Virus record (IMG/VR): IMGVR_UViG_638341087_000020
Coordinates: 1 to 26,634 of that record
Origin: a virus
Taxonomy: Duplodnaviria; Heunggongvirae; Uroviricota; Caudoviricetes
Length of the DNA: 26,634 nt
Reading direction: 5' to 3' (one strand)
Both the position numbers and the translations under genes were made by a program. Positions 1,579 through 26,450 of the stretch are shown here, piece after piece. How positions within the stretch are numbered: the stretch's first letter is position 1; each line of letters begins with the position of its first letter. The notes under the pieces are model-generated. The model saw nothing but the letters and a program-made list of their open reading frames with translations. It was not told where the DNA came from and ran no database searches.

Positions 1579-2133
1579 TCATTTATCTCCGACCGGAAAC
1601 TTCTTATACAGTGTCGATATACCAACATCATAGATGATCGCCACCTTCTGGCGAGGAACGCCTGATGCAATTAATCGCCCGGCCTGCGCCCATTGTTCTG
1701 GTGTAAGTTTGGGACGACGTCCACCAATTCGTCCCTGTGCGCGAGCAGCTTCCAGTCCAGCTTTTGTTCGTTCAACAATCAGTTCTCGTTCCATTTCAGC
1801 CAGGGCACCCATGACATGAAAAAAGAAACGGCCCATTGGGGTACTGGTATCAATACTGTCAGTCAGGCTTCGGAAATTCACGCCACGCTGGCGCAACTCT
1901 TCTATCAGCGTAACAAGATGCCGCATACTGCGCCCTAACCTGTCCAGCTTCCAGACAACCAGAGTGTCACCTGCCGATAATGTCCTGAGCAGTTTTTTCA
2001 GTCCGGGCCTTTCGGACTTCGTACCGCTTATCTTGTCTTCAAAAATCAGTTCACATCCTACACAGTTCAACGCATTACGTTGTAGATCGGTGTTCTGGTC
2101 ATTTGTTGATACGCGTACATAGCCAATAAGCAT
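1579..2133 (-). CDS. pin: Serine-recombinase DNA invertase, Pin/Gin/Hin family
   Basis: ORF-track frame trimmed to the internal ATG at 2133 (MLIGYVRVSTNDQ...), with AGGGAG 7 nt upstream. N-terminal catalytic motif YVRVST..Q and C-terminal helix-turn-helix (GVPRQKVAIIYDVGISTLYK) are typical of this family. Lies directly beside an invertible tail-fibre segment. Confidence 0.9.
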   Translation of the reverse strand: MLIGYVRVSTNDQNTDLQRNALNCVGCELIFEDKISGTKSERPGLKKLLRTLSAGDTLVVWKLDRLGRSMRHLVTLIEELRQRGVNFRSLTDSIDTSTPMGRFFFHVMGALAEMERELIVERTKAGLEAARAQGRIGGRRPKLTPEQWAQAGRLIASGVPRQKVAIIYDVGISTLYKKFPVGDK

Positions 2134-2187
2134 GGTGGATCTCCCTGACAAAAGCAGGAATGATGCCATTTGCTCGTTATTTCTGCA

Positions 2188-2213
2188 TTTTCATAAACGT
2201 TGGTTTGGGAGAA
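2188..2213. repeat. Invertase crossover site, left (pix/gix/hix-like 26-bp site)
   Basis: TTTTCATAAACGTTGGTTTGGGAGAA; its reverse complement matches the site at 4067-4092 at 21 of 26 positions. Imperfect dyad around a central TT, with AAAC..GGTTT half-sites as in hix/gix sites. Confidence 0.75.
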
Positions 2214-2711
2214 GGTTCGGCATTACCCGTTGGCGTGCCTGTTCCGTGGCCTTCCGCCACTCCGCCAACAGGCTGGCTGAAATGCAACGGTGCCGCTTTT
2301 TCTGCTGAAGAATACCCGGAACTGGCAAAGGCTTATCCGACAAATAAATTGCCTGATTTACGTGGTGAGTTTATTCGTGGCTGGGATGACGGGCGTGGAG
2401 TGGATAGCGGTCGTACTTTATTAACGAATCAAGAGCATGCAGTAATTTCTCATAATCATGGAATACCTACAAAAGTGGGGTCAGTTACTAATATCCCGTA
2501 TGGAATAGAACAGGTTATATCTGATGAAACCATTTTTTCATCAGCAAAAACAGTTGGTGTGGATTACTGGTCTAACAGTGAGCGAGTTTTTACTTATACC
2601 ACTGGTGGAAGAAATGGTGCTGAATCAGTGAGTTCACCTGATGCCTCCTCTTTAATTAAAGAAACCAGACCACGGAACCTGGCATTTGCGTATATCGTGA
2701 GGGCTGCATAA
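2202..2711 (+). CDS. Alternative tail-fibre C-terminal (receptor-binding) cassette, silent in the present orientation; no start of its own
   Basis: The frame is open from the left crossover site and reads ..NVGLGEGSALPVGVPVPWPSATPPTGW.., in the same phase relative to GGTTTGGGAGAA as the expressed fibre. Inversion would fuse it to the constant N-terminus. The ATG at 2160 in the ORF track is probably fortuitous. Confidence 0.6.
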   Translation, partial: GLGEGSALPVGVPVPWPSATPPTGWLKCNGAAFSAEEYPELAKAYPTNKLPDLRGEFIRGWDDGRGVDSGRTLLTNQEHAVISHNHGIPTKVGSVTNIPYGIEQVISDETIFSSAKTVGVDYWSNSERVFTYTTGGRNGAESVSSPDASSLIKETRPRNLAFAYIVRAA

Positions 2712-3313
2712 TGGATTACGCTGTATTAAATAACGAATTTATCGCCACCCAAGCAGGAAATATTACGGTTTATAACTATGATGGTGAAACACGGGAATAT
2801 ATTTTCACATCAACTGAATATCTTGCTGTGGGTGTCGGCATTCCGGCATGTTCCTGTTTAGATGCTCCTGGCTCATACAAAACTGGGTATGCAATCTGCC
2901 GTTCTGCAGATTTTAACTCATGGGAATATGTGCCAGACCATCGTGGTGAAATCGTCTTTAGCACAGAAACAGGAGAATCAAAAGAAATCAAAGCTCCGGG
3001 TGATTACCCTGAAAATACAACCACTATCGCCCCTTTATCTCCATACGATAAATGGGATGGTGAGAAATGGGTAACCGATACTGAGGCACAGCATAGCGCC
3101 GCAGTAGACGCGGCAGAAGCACAGCGCCAGTCACTGATTGATGCTGCAATGGCTTCCATCAGTCTGATTCAGCTGAAATTACAGGCCGGACGGAAACTGA
3201 CGCAGGCAGAAACAACCCAGCTTAACGCTGTGCTGGATTACATTGACGCGGTGACGGCAACAGATACCAGCACCGCGCCGAATGTCATCTGGCCTGAACT
3301 GCCGGAGGCGTAG
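2711..3313 (+). CDS. Tail-fibre assembly chaperone (Tfa), alternative cassette copy
   Basis: 200-aa ORF starting in a TAATG overlap with the preceding cassette. C-terminus (..LDYIDAVTATDTSTAPNVIWPELP) carries the conserved Tfa C-terminal motif also seen in the 3285-3725 copy. Confidence 0.7.
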   Translation: MDYAVLNNEFIATQAGNITVYNYDGETREYIFTSTEYLAVGVGIPACSCLDAPGSYKTGYAICRSADFNSWEYVPDHRGEIVFSTETGESKEIKAPGDYPENTTTIAPLSPYDKWDGEKWVTDTEAQHSAAVDAAEAQRQSLIDAAMASISLIQLKLQAGRKLTQAETTQLNAVLDYIDAVTATDTSTAPNVIWPELPEA

Positions 3314-3725
3314 GCCATTCAATATCTGGAGCACTGGAGGGATCAACCAGTTCCAGTGCGTCCAGATAATCCAGCCATAAATTATATTGCGCCAGTTCCT
3401 CACCTTTCAGACGACCAATAGCTGCTTTACCTGGCCATTGCCTGTTATTCATGTGCTCATTGGCAGTATCTATGCGCCGCTGACGCTCGTATTCTGCCAT
3501 CTTTATCAGTTCTTCAGGTGCCAGTGGCGGAATATCACTCCATACGGGATAACCATCATCACCCGCAATCCTCATTTTTCCCTCCGGTGGCTTCTGAAAT
3601 GCAGAAAAAGTTTCTTCATCAACCTCCACGCCTTTTTCTGGCCATAACCCCACGGATTCATAATGTAATTTCAAAGCCAACGGATAGAAGGCGTTAGTTT
3701 TTGCATCATAAATATATTTGTTCAT
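3285..3725 (-). CDS. Tail-fibre assembly chaperone (Tfa), expressed-orientation copy
   Basis: 146-aa ORF immediately downstream of the tail-fibre gene. C-terminal motif ..LDYLDALELVDPSSAPDIEWP. Converges on and overlaps the other Tfa copy by 29 bp. Confidence 0.8.
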   Translation of the reverse strand: MNKYIYDAKTNAFYPLALKLHYESVGLWPEKGVEVDEETFSAFQKPPEGKMRIAGDDGYPVWSDIPPLAPEELIKMAEYERQRRIDTANEHMNNRQWPGKAAIGRLKGEELAQYNLWLDYLDALELVDPSSAPDIEWPTPPAVQAR

Positions 3726-18995: not shown

Positions 18996-20729
18996 TTAAA
19001 GCGAGCGGATCCCATAGGACTCAATGTGGTCAGACAGCGTGTCTTCTTTCTCGTACAGCATGGCTCTGCCAACCGCCATAATCAGCGCAACTGCACCGTC
19101 AATTTTGTTTTCCGCCTGCTCTTTGACGGGTTTCACCACATCATCGTTACCCGGAATGGTTTTGCCGACCACATTGCCGATACACCAGGTCATGATGGGA
19201 TTGCCATCATGATGAAAGCGCCCCGATTCAATTGCCGCTTCCAGCTCTTTCATCGGGTCGGACATGTTGGTGTAGTTCTGAATGATAGTGACGGGATTCA
19301 GGTCTTCATCAGCAAGGTCATGTGACAACCCGGTCGCCCCGAAGGGGTCGATGGGTGACTCACTGACCGGGCTGATTTTGTTCGCCGCTTTGGCCTCCTC
19401 GAGGATGTAGCGATAATCCACCTCCGCACCATCGGTAACGGTCAGAACGCCCATTTCCACCCATTTCTGAAAGCGTTCGGCTGTCCGGCGATCTTCATTT
19501 TTCTCGACGCTGTACACCGTGTCATACGGTACCCAGAAGCGCGGAGCCACACTGTAGTAATGCGTTTTACCGTCAATCTCGCGGGTATAAAGTCGCGCCA
19601 TGCTGTTCATATCCAGCTTACGCGCCAGGTCAAAGGCCAGAATGCACGGCTGCCCCTCGAACTGCTCAAGGGTCAGTGATTTATCCTCGCAGCTCTGCCA
19701 GCTCACCAGGTTGAAATACGCCGAACGCGCCGACACCCAGATATTGAGGTGTTTTGTTTTAAAGACGTTTGCCAGACGGGCGTTATTTTTCGCACGCTGC
19801 TGCTGACTTAACAAAAATTCGCGATAAACCGACACGCCAATATTTGGATTGGCTTTTTCCAGCACCTGCGGGTCGGTCCAGTCATCGCCTTCGTCAACGG
19901 TATAGATGATCCCGAACAGTTCATCGTTGGGTACCGAACCGTTGAGCATCTCGATAACTTCCCGCCGCTTGTCGTAGCACGGCCCCTCAATGTTGTACCC
20001 GGCGGTGGTGATGGCCCACATCAGTGGCTGACGTCGCGCGCCCATCCCGGTAAGCATCGTGGTATAAAGCGCATCGGTGGCGTGCTCGTGATATTCATCC
20101 ACCACGGCACAGTGGGGTGATGAACCATCACCGGGGTTACCGATCAGCGGTTCAAACCGCGCGCCATCCTCCGGACGGTTCATGTTTGAGGCGTTAACCT
20201 CAATCCCGAACGCTTCCGTCAGCATGGGTGTGCGTTTACACATCAGTCGCGCCGGGCGAAAGACTTCCCACGCCTGTTTCTCTGTCGTGGCACCGGAATA
20301 CACTTCCGCGCCAAACTCGTTATCACAGGCAAAACAATACAGGGCAACACCGGCAGAGATTGCCGATTTGCCGTTCTTACGGGGGATTTCGGTATACACC
20401 TCCCTGAAGCGGCGCAGCCGGGAGCCTTTATTGACCCAGCCAAACGCACAGCAGATCACAAAGAGCTGCCACGGTTCCAGCGTGATGGGCATCCTCTTGA
20501 ATGCCCACTCCCCCTTGGTGTGTGGCAACAGCTGAATAAATTTCGCGGCCCGTTCAGCCAGGTCCTTGTCGAAGCGGTAACGAAACGACTTACTTTTTTC
20601 CGCCATCAGGTCATCAAGATGGCGCTGGCAGGCCTGAATCACAAACTGGCAGGCCACAATCTTTCCGCGCACGACATCACGGGCATACTGATTGGCAGCA
20701 TTTACGTTGGGGTAAGATTTCCGGCTCAT
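18996..20729 (-). CDS. Terminase large subunit
   Basis: 577-aa ORF with an N-terminal ATPase region (..[14 protein letters not shown].. Walker A-like) and C-terminal nuclease region. Its ATG overlaps the TerS stop as ATGA, implying translational coupling. Confidence 0.9.
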
Positions 20730-21220
20730 GATTCGATGATTTTCAGAAACGGGTTAGTGGCTTTCTTCTGCCCCGCCAGGCCAATCAGACGCTGGCGGCT
20801 GCTGGGGTCGAGTCCGAGCATTGCCCCCGTGCTGCTCATCTCGGACTCCTGTTCTTTCTTGGCGGTCAGCTCCGGATTTTTGACCATGCCACCCATTGCA
20901 CCGGTGATGGTGTTGCCCTGTCTGGCAATATTTTTCACGGCACGCCGCCAGAACTCGTAGGCCACGCACCACCGCTCAAGCACCGCGAGGTCAGTCACGC
21001 ACAGCAGGCCCTGACCGCAGAGTTCTTTGGTTGTCAGTTGCCACATGATCGTGGCGAGAGGGAGATCTTCTTCAGCGAACCACTCCGGTGGCTCAACACC
21101 TTTGATGGGCGTAAAAACAGGTTCATCTTTATTCAGGGCTCGCTTGCCGGGGTTTCCGGCCAGCGCCTTGCGCGCCGTTGGCTTGGGGCGACGCCCGGAA
21201 CGCCCCGCCGTTCCAGCCAT
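20726..21220 (-). CDS. Terminase small subunit (P27-family-like)
   Basis: Frame trimmed to the ATG at 21220 ([14 protein letters not shown]..), which has AGGAG 8 nt upstream. Basic N-terminus; immediately upstream of TerL. Confidence 0.7.
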
Positions 21221-21270
21221 ATGCGGCACTCCTGGTTAAATTTCATTTTTCGCGGGTATAAAAAAACGAT

Positions 21271-21345: not shown

Positions 21346-21696
21346 TCACTTAAGCCGTTCACGGGCCGTCTTCGCCTTATGACACGGCCAGCACAGACTC
21401 TGCAGATTACTGTCAGCATCAGTGCCGCCATGTGCTTTAGGGATGATGTGGTCAACGGTTTTCGCTTCACGCGCCACACCAGCACGCAGACATAACAGAC
21501 ACAGGCCTTTGTCACGCTTCAGGACACGCACCCGGATACCGTCCCACTTCGAACCATAACCACGCTGATGGCGGGACTGGCCCGGCTTGTATTGCTTCCA
21601 GCCTTCACTTTTGTGGCTTTCGCAATAGCCTGACGGGTCAGTCGTGGTATGGCGGCAACCGCGGACGCGGCAGGCTTTTGGTGTTCGTGGTGGCAT
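21346..21696 (-). CDS. HNH endonuclease (packaging-associated, HK97 gp74-like)
   Basis: 116-aa ORF with Cys-rich zinc motifs and an HNH core (..DHIIPKAHGGTDADSNLQSLCWPCHKAKT..), immediately upstream of the TerS/TerL genes. Confidence 0.85.
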   Translation of the reverse strand: MPPRTPKACRVRGCRHTTTDPSGYCESHKSEGWKQYKPGQSRHQRGYGSKWDGIRVRVLKRDKGLCLLCLRAGVAREAKTVDHIIPKAHGGTDADSNLQSLCWPCHKAKTARERLK

Positions 21697-21837
21697 TGTA
21701 AGATTCTCTTCGGTAGTGTATATGCAATAAACAAATGACCTGTATGAGATCTCATTCTGGATAGATAATGAGTGACCATCACAAACCTAAGGTTGTAAAT
21801 GTTACTTTGAAATCAACTTAAAATTGGTGGACATCAA

Positions 21838-22233
21838 ATGAGTAAAGACAAAAATGCACCTTCTCTGCCCTCTACAGGGATTTATATTGAAAAGGGTTTT
21901 GGAAATCAGCTTTCTAACATAACATCGGTAGGATATGACGTAGGCATTCGCTTCGATGAAGCTTACAATAATAAGTTTTCTTCAGTTCAAGTTATCAGCT
22001 TAGACGCGCTAACTGTGTTAGAACAAACTAAAATTCAATTATTAAACTTGAACATTGATGAAAAATTAAAAAATGAAATTAATAACAAACTTGACGAAAT
22101 TAAAACGGCTCCATCTAAAGAGAGCGCCTCAAACTCATACATTAAATTAATGTCATCACTATCAGATCATGTCACTGTTCTTACGCCACTCTGGCCGCAT
22201 TTATGTACATTAGCTGGTAGCCTCATTGCGTAA
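21838..22233 (+). CDS. Hypothetical protein; opposite-strand AT-rich moron
   Basis: 131-aa ORF on the plus strand inside an otherwise minus-strand late operon. Visibly AT-rich with GGTGGA upstream of the ATG; no recognisable motif. Confidence 0.5.
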   Translation: MSKDKNAPSLPSTGIYIEKGFGNQLSNITSVGYDVGIRFDEAYNNKFSSVQVISLDALTVLEQTKIQLLNLNIDEKLKNEINNKLDEIKTAPSKESASNSYIKLMSSLSDHVTVLTPLWPHLCTLAGSLIA

Positions 22234-22524
22234 CATTATCGCAGGTACTCGGTGAATGCCTGCTGTAATGCCTGCCACACTCTCGCAGTGGCCGCGCTCA
22301 TGCCCTTGAGACCATGTGTCAGGGGTATCTCGTGAATCCCTCACCACTAACCGAAAGCTGACCGGCGATCAACCTGGGGCACCAGCGCGCTTCTTCCCGT
22401 TAACCCTCACCAGCGCGCTATCAGCTTTTTACCTGAAACTGGCTACCAGCAACTTTGGGTATTCGGGGCAGCGTAATTACTGCTGCATTGGCACTACTTG
22501 CCGCGGTCTTTCCGCTTTACAGCT

Positions 22525-22782
22525 TTATGGCCAGCTCCTCTCTGCCTCAATTTTATGAATATCAGCTTTATCCCTATTACAGGCAGCCAGAGCCGACAAC
22601 AGACTCACATTCAAATCCAAGCTTCCACCGTAGGTCAATGGATCAGGAATAACCGGTTGAGGGGTTTCAGCGGTTAGGTTCGCCGGTAGTGGTACCGCCG
22701 GAACTGGCTCGTAAACTGTCCGCGTACTTCCGCAACCGGTCAGCAGCGGTAGCAGGCACAGGACGTGAAGCGCAATCATCAT
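22525..22782 (-). CDS. Rz1: o-spanin (Rz1-like outer-membrane lipoprotein)
   Basis: Start set at internal ATG ATG (22782). Signal peptide MMIALHVLCLLPLLTG followed by lipobox Cys, then a proline-rich mature region. Begins in the +1 frame inside Rz and extends past its stop. Confidence 0.65.
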   Translation of the reverse strand: MMIALHVLCLLPLLTGCGSTRTVYEPVPAVPLPANLTAETPQPVIPDPLTYGGSLDLNVSLLSALAACNRDKADIHKIEAERSWP

Positions 22783-23059
22783 TCGCAATAGCCACTTTGA
22801 TATCTTCCTGGGTTCTCTGTGACTCCAGTGCGATCTGCTGTTTTGCATGCTGGTTAGCCTCCAGTACTGTATTGACGATTTGCAGTGATTGCAGGATGTT
22901 ATTGGTAATGGCAGTTGCCAATTTGGCATTTTGTACAGCCTCATCAGCACGTTTCTTTTCGTACTGATATTTGCTGTAGTAGTGGTTGGCTGACCAGATG
23001 AAAGAACCAATGACAGTAACGAAGAAAGCAGAGATAACCAGCTTATAGCTCAACTTCAT
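22667..23059 (-). CDS. Rz: i-spanin (Rz-like)
   Basis: 130-aa ORF with an N-terminal transmembrane helix and coiled-coil-like remainder, immediately downstream of the endolysin gene. Confidence 0.7.
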   Translation of the reverse strand: MKLSYKLVISAFFVTVIGSFIWSANHYYSKYQYEKKRADEAVQNAKLATAITNNILQSLQIVNTVLEANQHAKQQIALESQRTQEDIKVAIANDDCASRPVPATAADRLRKYADSLRASSGGTTTGEPNR

Positions 23060-23519
23060 TTACCACCCCACCAGCCTCTTTAAACCGGGAAATCAGGTCG
23101 CCAATTTTATGTTCATACTGACCGTAACCTGCACCAGGTAAAGACGCCCAGATATTGCTGCAACGGTCGATTGCCTGACGAATATTGCCGCGATCAATCA
23201 TCGGTAAAGCGCCACGCTCTTTAATCTGCTGTAATGCCACTGAGTCCTGGCTTCTGGGAGAGAAGTCTTTCAGCCCAAGCTGCTTGCGGTAAGCATCCCA
23301 CCAACGTGAAAGAAGTTGATAACGGCCTGCAGCTGTTGATTTGAGTTTCGGGTTTAGCGTGACAAGTTTGCGAGGGTGATCGGAGTAATCAGTGAAGAGT
23401 TCGCCACCGACAATAACGTCATAACCGTGGTTACGTGTCGGTTGTCGCCCGTTATCCGTTCCTTCTGACCATGCCACCATATCCAGGAAAGCTTTACGCT
23501 GGGAATTTAGTACCTGCAT
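23043..23519 (-). CDS. R: Endolysin, lambda R-type lytic transglycosylase
   Basis: 158-aa protein that is near-identical over most of its length to phage lambda R as I remember it (..QRKAFLDM.AWSEGTDNGRQ.TRNHGYDVIVGGELFTDYSDHPRKLVTLNPKLKST.AGRYQLLSRWWDAYRKQLGLKDFSP..). Confidence 0.9.
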   Translation of the reverse strand: MQVLNSQRKAFLDMVAWSEGTDNGRQPTRNHGYDVIVGGELFTDYSDHPRKLVTLNPKLKSTAAGRYQLLSRWWDAYRKQLGLKDFSPRSQDSVALQQIKERGALPMIDRGNIRQAIDRCSNIWASLPGAGYGQYEHKIGDLISRFKEAGGVVNEVEL

Positions 23520-23522
23520 AAA

Positions 23523-23858
23523 TTACTCCTTAGAGCCACCAAACTTGTTACCGATTACTCTCATTGCAGCCCCACGAATAGCATCGACACCGATCAACCC
23601 AACGCCACCACCAATGGCAACAGAAAGCGATTTAGGCCATCCGACATACTCAAGAGCGGATGCAAAAGTCAGCGTCAGAGCGCCGCAGAGCAAAATCTCG
23701 AGCGTTTTTCGCTTCCAGCCACCACCACCGCCAAAATAGGCGATGCGCAAACCAGCCATAACGATCGACATAATCACTGCACCCAGCGGTGTGTCTCCAC
23801 GCCACCAGCTCTGAAACAACTCCAGCCAGTCCGGCCAGGTATTTGGGTTATGAGGCAT
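23523..23858 (-). CDS. Holin (three predicted transmembrane helices)
   Basis: Start set at the first ATG (23858; MPHNPNTW..); the longer ORF-track frame begins with GTG and overlaps a terminator hairpin. Three hydrophobic segments; immediately upstream of the endolysin gene. Confidence 0.6.
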   Translation of the reverse strand: MPHNPNTWPDWLELFQSWWRGDTPLGAVIMSIVMAGLRIAYFGGGGGWKRKTLEILLCGALTLTFASALEYVGWPKSLSVAIGGGVGLIGVDAIRGAAMRVIGNKFGGSKE

Positions 23859-23903
23859 TTCGTCATCTCTCACCTCGCGATATTTGCGGGTGCTGTGTTG
23901 GAA

Positions 23904-23927
23904 ATAAAAAGGCCACGCAACGTGGCC
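23904..23927 (-). terminator. Candidate intrinsic terminator just upstream of the holin gene
   Basis: On the minus strand a 7-bp stem (GGCCACG/CGTGGCC), 3-nt loop, then TTTTTAT, about 45 nt upstream of the holin ATG. Confidence 0.45.
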
Positions 23928-23934
23928 ACCAGAA

Positions 23935-24309
23935 TTATTTCCCCACCAGTTCACTTACCTCTTTCACCGTCTGATTAAACCGCTCTGACTCAAGTTCAAC
24001 ACCTAACGCCCGACGCCCCAGCGCCATTGCTGCTTTTATTGTGGAACCTGATCCCATAAAGAAATCAGCAACCAGATCACCTGGTCGACTACTGGCATTG
24101 ATTATTTGCCGGAGCATATCCGCCGGTTTCTCGCACGGATGTTTACCCGGGTAGAACTGAACGGGCTTATGCGTCCTGACATCGGTATAAGGCACGGAGA
24201 CTGATACGGAGAAATAGCGCCGGAGAGATTTAAACTCATCCAGCAATTCAGAAGATTTGCAATTCAGTGAATCATGAGATACCACCAACTGGTGGTAGGA
24301 TTGTCTCAA
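23935..24309 (-). pseudogene. 5'-truncated DNA methyltransferase remnant (beta-class N6-adenine/N4-cytosine type)
   Basis: Open frame with no ATG until residue about 64, opening right after an in-frame TAG. Carries the ..HPCEKP.. and FFMGSGST (SAM-binding F-x-G-x-G) motifs but lacks the catalytic (D/S)PPY region normally N-terminal in this class. The AT-rich insert starts where the N-terminus should be. Confidence 0.6.
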
Positions 24310-24483
24310 CTAGTGAGCTTTATACATTTAAGTGCGATGCACAGATAATAACCACGCCAATGGAATATCACACACAAAATTGATAGAACACTAACAATAA
24401 GCCATGAAATAATTCACGATTTATTTTTACAATGGATAAGTAGCAAAGTAGTGAATGTGAATAACGGCTAACTAAGATGAAAC

Positions 24484-24510
24484 AAAAAGCCCCACAATCT
24501 GTGGGGCTCC
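24484..24510 (-). terminator. Candidate intrinsic terminator downstream of the small Gns-like gene
   Basis: On the minus strand an 8-bp stem (AGCCCCAC/GTGGGGCT), 5-nt loop, then TTTTTGTTT. Confidence 0.5.
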
Positions 24511-24566
24511 TTCGCGACTTATAGTAAAATAATCGATTCTCTAGCTGAAAAAATCTTTAAAAATTA

Positions 24567-24752
24567 TCAGCAATACGCAAGTTTTTTACCGTCATCCGGT
24601 ACTAGTTTGATCACTACACCAGGATTCTTACGCTCTAACATCTGAGTTTGACTCCATGTAATACCAAAGGTTTCCATTGGAGATGCATTGCCAGCAAAGA
24701 GTTCGGCGACGACTTTAGCTGCCTCAATCTCTATCTGCTCATGATGTTTCAT
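24567..24752 (-). CDS. Small protein (61 aa), possibly GnsA/GnsB-like
   Basis: Start set at the ATG with AAGGGGA 6 nt upstream (MKHHEQIEIEAAKVVAELFAG..VVIKLVPDDGKKLAYC). Length and helix-then-strand pattern recall the Gns family from remembered sequence only. Confidence 0.45.
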   Translation of the reverse strand: MKHHEQIEIEAAKVVAELFAGNASPMETFGITWSQTQMLERKNPGVVIKLVPDDGKKLAYC

Positions 24753-24943
24753 AAAAATCCCCTTGTTCAGCACTAAGCTGTAGTTGCTTCTTTGAAGCAT
24801 AAAGGCAACAAAGTTTGTTACCTGAAGATGTATAAAGTAAAGCGTAGTACATTTTGTGTGTGCTTTGTGTGGATCCAGATTGCATCAACTAAAAGAGGTT
24901 TTCAATACTTTTGTAATGATTCTGGAGAAATTAAGAATCTAAC

Positions 24944-25486
24944 TCACACTGATTGGTTAGGTAAAACACTCCTAAGCACCATTGCGCAACCACCTCGTTC
25001 GTAATCAGCAATGTACTCAAAACCACTTTCAGTATAGTATCTTATTGCCCCATCAACTGGACTAACTAAAGCTATCGAATCAATAGATTCACCCTGAAGG
25101 TTCAGAAATCGTGCATATGCAGAGAAGCAATCCAAAACGATACCAAGCATCTGATGGTCTAGGTCTTCATGTGCATCATTACGTTTTTCCATCCAGCAAA
25201 TATGCACCGCATTTTTCGGCTTACAGTAACACCCAAATGCAAATCCAATAGGCTCCCCACGATAATAAACAACTAGTTTTATCGGGTGTTCTTCCATCAT
25301 ATCCATAAACACTCGCGACTTTAGTCCGGGATCCCACCGCAGTTTATTGTTCGCCTTGAGGAACTCCATATCTTTTAGTACCAGCTCGTCGGCATATACG
25401 AGCCCTAACGACTTATGAGGGAAGCGCCCTTTTAAATACTCTGCAACATTTTTAAATACTGCTGTTTGGAAGGCTTGAAACATCAT
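24944..25486 (-). CDS. Hypothetical protein, possibly GNAT-fold (acyl-CoA N-acyltransferase-like)
   Basis: 180-aa ORF in AT-rich DNA between the Q-like gene and the lysis cassette. C-terminal ..PVDGAIRYYTESGFEYI.. resembles the GNAT motif-B signature; the upstream Q-x-x-G-x-V segment is only a weak motif-A match. Weak RBS. Confidence 0.45.
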   Translation of the reverse strand: MMFQAFQTAVFKNVAEYLKGRFPHKSLGLVYADELVLKDMEFLKANNKLRWDPGLKSRVFMDMMEEHPIKLVVYYRGEPIGFAFGCYCKPKNAVHICWMEKRNDAHEDLDHQMLGIVLDCFSAYARFLNLQGESIDSIALVSPVDGAIRYYTESGFEYIADYERGGCAMVLRSVLPNQSV

Positions 25487-25562
25487 GTCGATCCAGACGA
25501 GACGAAAGTTTAAATTCTACCTACTCGCCGAATACCATTTCAATGCCACACATCTAAAATTC

Positions 25563-25600
25563 CGAAAAAAAACCCGCACATCAGCGGGTTTTCTACTTTT
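25563..25600. terminator. Intrinsic terminator hairpin flanked by A- and T-tracts (candidate tR'-like late terminator; potentially bidirectional)
   Basis: AAAAAAAA-ACCCGC-ACATCA-GCGGGT-TTTCTACTTTTT on the plus strand. On the minus strand the hairpin is followed by TTTTTTTT, about 100 nt downstream of the Q-like stop. Confidence 0.5.
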
Positions 25601-25697: not shown

Positions 25698-26450
25698 TCA
25701 TCTCGTCACTTTCCTCAATTGTGTCTCAGCATACGCTTCTTCCTGCCAGCACTTTGTAACCAGTTTATCAATGACATTTGCATATCCTTTGTACCACTGA
25801 TAATCAGTCAGGTCCGGTACCAGCTTCTGGACATGATGCCGCGCCAGTGTTGTTGGTAAACGACTAAACCGTTTTCCATTGCAACGCCCACAAATCTTAT
25901 AAACAGGTGTGCCATGAAGCCGGGTCCTTTTTTCATCCAGGACAATACCTTTACCCTTACACCCTCTGCACGCTGTGCTGACTTCTCCCTTACCATGACA
26001 ATGCTGACATAGTTCCTTCACCCACTCTTCCTTGATAACAGATTCCCCGCTTCTGGAGTGCTTCACCACTTCGCGCAATACATTCTGAAATCCAGTACCA
26101 GCACAATGCTCACAGCGAGCCTTACTTGCCGCAGACCTGGAATAATCAGCAAAGGCAAAATTCACAAGGTAAGGGATGATCTGTAACCGGATTTCTTCAC
26201 TCAATTTGTTCAATGTCGGGTTATCCAGTGCCATCGCGTAATTGAGCAGACCTTCAATCGCAAACTGAGGATCCTGAACGCCAACTTTTGCCAGGAATAA
26301 GGCAAACCCAAGCGGTGCTTTCGACTGCACCATCCCCTGTGCAGCCATCACATCCGTAATCGTTAAACCACCTGAGCCTGTCGCCGGTGCGTCATCACTC
26401 AATTTTGGAGATTTTGGGGAGTAATATTTTGGTAAGGCTTCAAAGTTCAT
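25698..26450 (-). CDS. Late antiterminator Q-like protein candidate (zinc-finger protein, about 250-aa Q class)
   Basis: 250-aa ORF with GGAG 7 nt upstream. Four CxxCxGxG/R zinc-finger-like repeats (CEHCAGTG, CQHCHGKG, CRGCKGKG, CGRCNGKR). Located immediately upstream of a promoter/terminator pair and the lysis cassette, where lambdoid phages carry Q. Confidence 0.5.
   Translation of the reverse strand: MNFEALPKYYSPKSPKLSDDAPATGSGGLTITDVMAAQGMVQSKAPLGFALFLAKVGVQDPQFAIEGLLNYAMALDNPTLNKLSEEIRLQIIPYLVNFAFADYSRSAASKARCEHCAGTGFQNVLREVVKHSRSGESVIKEEWVKELCQHCHGKGEVSTACRGCKGKGIVLDEKRTRLHGTPVYKICGRCNGKRFSRLPTTLARHHVQKLVPDLTDYQWYKGYANVIDKLVTKCWQEEAYAETQLRKVTR

Follow-up and report, generated by a model that had tools for sequence, protein, structure and literature searches.

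The window analysed here, positions 1 to 26,634 of the IMG/VR virus record IMGVR_UViG_638341087_000020 (26,634 nt), belongs to an SfI/SfII-like Escherichia coli prophage whose early region is lambdoid, whose head is of the HK97 type and whose tail is contractile. Between its lysis and packaging genes we found a genuine, well-delimited AT-rich cassette, which encodes on the plus strand an orphan two-domain protein of 131 aa. The assignment of this cassette as a prophage moron is well supported, and its cargo gene is a candidate defence gene. Judged from genomic context only, the likeliest reading, to which we give a nearly even chance, is that the gene encodes a single-gene anti-phage protein acting in defence or exclusion.

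The cargo open reading frame (ORF) is a real gene under purifying selection. The preliminary description of the window had reported a 131-aa plus-strand ORF with a ribosome-binding site in AT-rich DNA, and such an ORF is present, with GGTGGA 6 nt before the ATG. Reading of the sequence showed that an in-frame TGA at 21808 blocks any upstream extension. The GC content of the ORF is 0.35 (0.30 at third codon positions), against 52% for the window, and it stays at 0.31–0.36 over 21700–22199 compared with 0.54–0.60 on either side, reaching 0.555 again in 22200–22399. An ORF of 131 codons in DNA of 35% GC is improbable by chance alone. Among 5.8 billion clustered proteins, two close clusters were found for the window protein, one consisting of the identical protein in E. 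coli (51 contigs) and the other of a copy in a prophage of Pseudescherichia vulneris with 60% amino acid identity. The coding sequences of the window and P. vulneris copies are 68% identical at the nucleotide level, with identities of 0.74, 0.82 and 0.49 at the three codon positions. Their ratio of non-synonymous to synonymous substitution rates (dN/dS) is 0.21 at a dS of about 1.3, and it is 0.057 over the C-terminal 31 codons (residues 101–131).

The cassette is a discrete, horizontally moved module, the ends of which were located by a three-way alignment of the window, P. vulneris and E. coli APEC E19025. Homology with the P. vulneris cassette covers approximately 21737–22275 and includes the 3′ hairpin, and the region 21697–21736 is confined to the E. 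coli version of the cassette. Homology with the sister prophage of APEC E19025 ends at the start codon of the HNH endonuclease gene and restarts at 22276, which is the exact end of the P. vulneris homology. The left junction lies at the HNH start codon, at about 21697–21711 (megablast junctions at query 297–311 and 1–111). A switch to GC-rich DNA had been described at the stop codon of the cargo gene; the composition does change there, but the junction of the cassette homology is found 42 nt later, at 22275/22276.

The distribution of the cassette is narrow: of the 5426 complete E. coli genomes, only two contain the whole cargo segment. Lysogens that carry the cassette include E. coli UTAK-5 (NZ_CP157152) and strain a7 (NZ_CP122496). 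An HNH gene of 90–93% identity was found in 939 E. coli genomes, and among the matches listed the similarity ends at the HNH start in all of them. The slot between the HNH gene and LysC, the right flank, which is convergent with the cargo gene, is polymorphic in sister E. coli prophages. It is empty in L038, with 26 bp from the LysC stop to the HNH start (2797–2824), and it holds a Rha-family regulator in L037 (3211–3729), two plus-strand hypothetical genes of 111 and 189 aa in L036 (2948–3953), and a single plus-strand hypothetical gene of 93 aa in L002 (3651–3932). As a side observation, this slot resembles a cargo hotspot.

In E. coli the cargo gene accompanies at least two lysis cassettes, one of the GH19/LysC type and the other of the lambda-R-like/holin_3_1 type. 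In P. vulneris it belongs to an unrelated phage, where it too lies on the opposite strand, between the lysis genes and a Terminase_2/Terminase_6 pair that is not of the P27 type. Further relatives, with identities of 53, 43 and 37%, were found in the IMG/VR viral contigs L028, L029 and L030, respectively. In all three contigs the gene is positioned between lysis cassette and terminase genes, tail-to-tail with Rz and with the two stop codons 3–14 nt apart, and in L028 and L029 about 50 nt separate the homologue from a divergent gene. The same two contigs carry two minus-strand ORFs between the homologue and the HNH gene (L028, 3865–5951; L029, 3883–5951), which by eye look glycosyltransferase-like and may represent serotype-conversion cargo in the same slot. 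A tblastn search of the INPHARED phages with the window protein and its relatives P0005 and P0008 gave no match, nor did a tblastn search of the PLSDB plasmids with the window protein.

A moron, as defined by Juhala and Hendrix, is an extra gene unit in a prophage that has its own promoter and terminator and whose transcription in the lysogen does not depend on the late operon. The gene had been proposed to be a moron, and its differing composition, its presence or absence among sister prophages and its movement as a module into unrelated phages support its status as cargo; patchy presence among homologous phages and deviant base composition are both features expected of a moron. The lambda gene bor is an opposite-strand moron situated between Rz and cos, and Bor is a secreted lipoprotein. 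The preliminary description had placed the cargo gene in the position and orientation of bor, in agreement with our finding that this small accessory gene is located downstream of Rz/Rz1, before the packaging end, and is oriented against the late operon. In phages of this type cos is situated just past the HNH gene (the SfI record ends 75 bp beyond the HNH stop), and the cassette position is therefore the analogue of the bor position. The encoded protein differs from Bor, as had also been stated: it has neither sequence nor domain relation to Bor, it matched no Pfam family at E ≤ 0.1 other than a chance HEAT match, and it has a hydrophilic N-terminus (MSKDKNAPSLPSTG) with no lipobox and no signal peptide.

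Signals that could serve independent expression were sought by a position-weight-matrix scan over five upstream regions and by a separate consensus scan. The former gave a weak candidate sigma-70 promoter with a 17-nt spacer, for which GATAAT at 21764–21769 is an alternative −10 element. Promoter-like sites lie at equal distances from the ATG in the cassettes of P. vulneris, L028 and L030, and the site in L030 is strong (TTGATA-17-TATATT). A 12-nt palindrome farther upstream, whose AGATCT core is kept in the P. vulneris copy, is a possible regulator site. No adjoining co-oriented partner gene that would make up a toxin–antitoxin pair was found, the sole candidate being an upstream mini-ORF of 17 codons (21768–21821); this mini-ORF was rejected as a partner or leader peptide, as its ATG is unconserved in P. 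vulneris.

At the other end of the cassette, an imperfect long hairpin follows the stop codon directly. The 42-nt tail in which it lies (22234–22275) shows 2 mismatches between E. coli and P. vulneris, against 68% identity in the coding sequence. The folding energy of the hairpin RNA was computed as −17.4 kcal/mol (z −2.1) for the window and −28 kcal/mol (z −4.9) for P. vulneris. The hairpin probably acts as a 3′-end stabiliser or a weak terminator of the cassette. We also considered the tail as the end of a widespread mobile element and rejected this idea, as the tail occurs in E. coli only with this cassette and is absent from L028–L030. An Rfam scan of the whole window matched no family.

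Homology and structure searches, which the preliminary description had proposed, led to a sparse, unnamed family and, as fold matches, to generic four-helix bundles only. The window protein had no significant match in Pfam, NCBIfam or PADLOC, and in PHROGs only weak matches, the best being to phrog_5677 (E 0.008). The matches to HEAT_ECM29, phrog_5677, MnuA and Nhe were sub-threshold and were dismissed as chance. When 1.84 billion cluster representatives were searched exhaustively with HMMER, 31 relatives were recovered at E ≤ 1e-3; 25 of these are 117–138 aa long and share a conserved M-x-K/D-K-type N-terminus. Two residues, Tyr101 and His111, are invariant in the family alignment, within the signature Y..FMS..SDH.TVL.P..P.L (in numbered form, Y101...S-D-H111-V-T-V-L-T-P..P.L). 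Five of the 31 members match phrog_16834 (best E 5e-30); part of the family has thus already been clustered among (pro)phage proteins, in a group that bears no annotation, although the window protein itself does not match it. A literature search returned no paper on WP_054627256 or PDC-M14.

The N-terminal half of the protein consists of 22-residue repeats of the form GI.I..G..N.F.N....G, which Pfam Beta_helix/NosD models match in 8 of the 31 relatives (best E 2.5e-7), the window protein lying below threshold. The AlphaFold2 model (26 sequences; mean predicted local distance difference test score, pLDDT, 78.8) contains two beta-solenoid (PbH1-like) coils at residues 13–53, with strands at 13–18, 24–31, 35–40 and 46–53, and a four-helix bundle at residues 55–130, with helices at 55–70, 75–89, 94–109 and 112–130 (pLDDT about 80–86). 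According to this model, a short right-handed beta-solenoid at the N-terminus caps the four-helix bundle. Its repeats are like the PbH1 repeats of tailspikes and NosD, but two coils are too few for a tailspike or an enzyme, and here they are joined to a helical bundle. The conserved core of the family is the last helix-turn-helix, comprising Tyr101, His111 and then a hydrophobic C-terminal helix that contains proline. The generic bundles just mentioned were the only result of fold searches against solved structures and viral models. In a profile search against PDB sequences, the matches to RecA fusion constructs and to Tako8 were judged artefactual, and the match to NosD was marginal.

More distant relatives were obtained by a profile search, which revealed proteins of 190–430 aa that have only the C-terminal domain in common with the family, and that carry a different N-terminal domain and the motif I.VSG.NSRVN..S.D.S.N before the C-terminal one. 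One of them, P0063, carries AbiTii at its N-terminus (Pfam E 2e-27) ahead of the common C-terminal module, and is followed by an AAA_15 ATPase and adjoins an integrase fragment. Relatives occur in defence or mobile-element contexts. The Shewanella relative adjoins Hachiman HamA/HamB, and the one in Photobacterium damselae adjoins a prophage integrase. Another is near a caspase-WD40 gene, and another comes after an HTH gene, a ThsB-TIR gene and an unidentified gene on a ParAB replicon that also bears AbiEi and TacAT. One relative is located directly behind an EcoRII/Vsr/MvaI restriction-modification cluster, in a neighbourhood that also has TIR_2 and RelA_SpoT; one is near an integrase and a CHAT protease, and a further one adjoins an integrase. 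In addition, about 4–5 of the 31 relatives match the PADLOC profiles of PDC-M14B over the C-terminal helical domain (E 1e-5 to 4e-3; profile positions about 150–260 of 267). PDC-M14B is a 'guilt-by-embedding' defence candidate (bioRxiv 10.1101/2024.01.29.577857).

These contexts, namely the defence islands, the integrases, the AbiTii fusion and the weak PDC-M14B matches, favour defence or exclusion within the earlier proposal of a lysogeny-expressed defence, exclusion or fitness cargo, of which the cargo status is supported as described above. Expression timing, defence function and the division of labour between the domains are inferred. In the mechanism we propose as the most likely, the lysogen would make a protein that counters phages by superinfection exclusion or abortive infection. 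Its conserved C-terminal bundle would serve as an effector or partner-binding module, possibly acting at the inner membrane via the hydrophobic last helix. Recognition would fall to the variable N-terminal part, which is a beta-solenoid here and another beta-rich domain or AbiTii in distant relatives. Upon induction, Q-dependent late transcription would run antisense through the cargo gene and shut it off. Late transcripts must cross the gene antisense to reach HNH and the terminase, and therefore its expression is probably suppressed during lytic growth.

Several points weigh against the defence reading. The link to defence consists of the neighbourhood in about eight loci, taken without statistics, together with one fusion and weak profile matches, and PADLOC gave no match to the window protein itself even at E ≤ 1. 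The candidate promoter of the cassette is a weak match (score about 4), the consensus scan of its upstream region gave nothing convincing, and the hairpin at the 3′ end of the cassette has no U-tract. Action at the membrane is speculative: holins, antiholins and membrane exclusion proteins such as SieB, RexB and Imm are marked by at least one distinct transmembrane helix, and the sole hydrophobic stretch here is helix 112–130, with a borderline Kyte-Doolittle 19-residue mean of 1.35 (0.7–2.2 in the family). The constant adjacency to Rz in phages could also indicate a phage-side function.

Such a function would be that of a lysis or packaging accessory, in which the protein modulates lysis timing or a convergent transcript regulates Rz/Rz1. 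In five different phage backbones the gene adjoins the lysis cassette on its Rz side, and in three of these the stop codons are so close that the 3′ ends of the transcripts must overlap. Nevertheless, sister prophages whose lysis and packaging genes are the same have no copy or an empty slot, the gene keeps company with different lysis cassettes within E. coli, its relatives also reside outside phages in defence islands, and in the window it is 290 nt away from LysC; we regard this explanation as quite unlikely. A Bor-like role in lysogenic conversion, with effects on host physiology, stress tolerance or host interaction, is unlikely as well, if a little less so. It would fit the bor-like slot and orientation, the AT-rich, horizontally acquired and strain-restricted nature of the cassette, and the origin of the carrier strains from cattle and duck. 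On the other side, the protein displays no signal peptide, lipobox or other surface-protein feature and no Pfam match to Bor or another family, and its relatives come from environmental Shewanella, Photobacterium and soil metagenomes, where they are near restriction-modification, Hachiman and TIR genes and not in virulence loci.

Two other roles were weighed. Anti-defence genes are usually located in the early region of phage genomes. A counter-defence protein that neutralises a host immune system could well be a small, orphan, phage-borne helical-bundle protein with a patchy distribution and no enzymatic motif, but this gene opposes the late operon far from the early region, and the presence of relatives in bacterial defence islands and the fusion of one of them to an abortive-infection domain, AbiTii, make such a role very unlikely. 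It is more improbable still, to the point of being hardly credible, that the gene is a non-functional relic, either a longer beta-helix protein cut down to its C-terminal part or hitch-hiking selfish junk. Longer forms do exist, such as the 268-aa relative P0023 with its additional beta-helix coils at the N-terminus. In Shewanella and P. damselae (L017, 7593–8396; L019, 7764–8393) the homologue stands in frame behind an upstream beta-helix ORF with a stop codon between them, and these ORF pairs, which jointly match P0023, look like split or nonsense-interrupted long forms. Against a relic stand the strong purifying selection and the predominance of the short form with its conserved N-terminus in the family, together with the short distance of about 50 nt to the divergent gene in L028 and L029. 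Further coding sequence would not fit in the window, where an in-frame stop codon lies at 21808 and the HNH gene starts at 21696. The cargo gene is thus not a fragment of a larger disrupted gene, an outcome that the preliminary description had allowed for.

Within the defence reading, a bolder version can be formulated. It is conceivable, if rather unlikely, that the window protein represents in E. coli prophages a new single-gene anti-phage family in which a previously undescribed C-terminal four-helix effector, with the invariant Tyr and His and a hydrophobic last helix kinked by proline, can be coupled to interchangeable N-terminal sensors (mini beta-solenoid, beta-rich or AbiTii). In this version, the fact that at least five temperate-phage backbones have the gene tail-to-tail with Rz/Rz1 might reflect joint action with the lysis cassette, for example premature lysis of superinfected lysogens.

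The window protein and its family were compared with known systems. Some relatives have a C-terminal helical domain that aligns to the PDC-M14B profiles, but the window protein and most relatives have no such match; PDC-M14 is a multi-gene candidate, itself without demonstrated function, as opposed to the lone gene here, and the window contains no adjoining PDC-M14A partner gene. GiPD474, a defence protein of Gifsy, is an ATPase and was set aside as unrelated. The family is linked to AbiTii proteins through the P0063 fusion. AbiTii is otherwise an N-terminal partner ahead of HEPN effector domains (PMC3710099). The fusion and the lone histidine suggested a relationship to HEPN proteins and in particular to c2405, which was located in strain CFT073 as an AbiTii and HhH 'ComEA family' protein adjoining tcpC. 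The cargo family resembles the R-less HEPN family c2405 (Anantharaman et al. 2013, PMC3710099) in having a helical bundle and a conserved His and in lacking a conserved Arg, but its His precedes a hydrophobic, proline-containing terminal helix, unlike that of c2405. An hhalign comparison with CFT073 c2405 gave a probability of 0.2–0.3%, the template being a single sequence and the test a weak one, and the idea was rejected. The AlphaFold2 model does have the up-down four-helix bundle of HEPN domains, but this fold is generic. The HEPN Rx4-6H motif is absent, as His111 opens helix 4 and no conserved Arg lies 5–7 residues before it (the motif reads S-S-L-S-D-H), and the Pfam HEPN models matched none of the 31 family members.

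The coordinates of the cassette, its signals and the flanking genes are collected in Table 1.

Table 1. Features of the cargo cassette and its surroundings in the window
Feature	Position	Strand	Details
AT-rich cargo segment (moron cassette), about 0.58 kb	21697–22275		Composition and three-way alignment
131-aa cargo protein, coding sequence	21838–22233	+	ATG start
12-nt palindrome ATGAGATCTCAT	21744–21755		Upstream region; repeat search; AGATCT core; possible regulator site
Candidate sigma-70 promoter	21772–21800	+	−35 GTGACC 21772–21777; −10 GTAAAT 21795–21800
Shine-Dalgarno-like GGTGGA	21826–21831	+	6 nt 5′ of ATG
Imperfect long hairpin	22234–22270	+	Directly 3′ of stop codon; no U-tract
TerL	18996–20729	−	
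TerS (P27 family)	20726–21229	−	
HNH endonuclease	21346–21696	−	Left flank of slot; Pfam HNH, E 5.6e-15
GC-rich non-coding spacer	22276–22524		Phage backbone, outside cassette; common to sister prophages
Rz1-like lipoprotein LysC, 85 aa from MMIAL...	22525–22782	−	Lipobox LLTGC; Pfam LysC, E 2.4e-16; gene calls in identical loci
Rz-like i-spanin (DUF2570)	22667–23059	−	
Endolysin	23043–23519	−	
Holin	23523–23954	−	

The start codon of the holin gene is uncertain, as the ORF has 143 aa from the first GTG and is called at 111 aa (about 23523–23858) in identical loci. Within the spacer, the region 22276–22413 is about 81% identical to a non-coding stretch 250–390 nt downstream of gene Q in phage mEp237, and a 43-nt core of it is 98% identical to sequence downstream of Q in the Klebsiella phages RothC and RothD; it may represent a boundary or regulatory sequence shared by lambdoid late regions. 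A 12-nt direct repeat, CACCAGCGCGCT, is present at 22380 and 22408.

The cargo gene had further been called the only plus-strand gene in the late operon, which holds between the Q-like antiterminator and the tail genes, but plus-strand ORFs also occur at 2160–3313 in an invertible tail-fibre segment. This segment (1579–3725) comprises a Pin/Gin-type serine invertase (1579–2169, minus strand), a tail-collar ORF (2160–2711, plus strand) and two opposed tail-fibre assembly genes (2711–3313, plus strand; 3285–3725, minus strand). A second AT-rich cargo block (24310–25500; GC 0.33–0.42) is located in the late leader, downstream of the Q-like antiterminator (25698–26450, minus strand), with a strong hairpin and T-run between the two at about 25565–25595 and a further hairpin and T-run at about 24480–24515. 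Its minus-strand ORFs of 180 aa (24944–25486) and about 62 aa (24570–24758) have no Pfam match. The adjacent minus-strand region 23935–24309 encodes the C-terminal part, about 124 aa, of an N6/N4 DNA methylase (Pfam positions 156–220 of 221) and is a truncated remnant; a full-length methylase of 351 aa is found at the equivalent place in L028 (8074–9129).

Strain-specific resistance of E. coli to phages comes to a large extent from prophage morons, and many of the small orphan ones are uncharacterised. The cassette described here offers a compact test case, with one gene of 131 aa, clear boundaries, two invariant residues and a family that extends to the defence islands of distant bacteria. 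If the protein proved inert, it would be merely another ordinary moron. Should it turn out to be protective, the repertoire of bacterial immunity would gain a new effector domain. In that case the Rz-to-terminase junction of lambdoid and HK97-type prophages, where a handful of sister prophages display an empty slot and at least four alternative cargos, would represent a defence hotspot.

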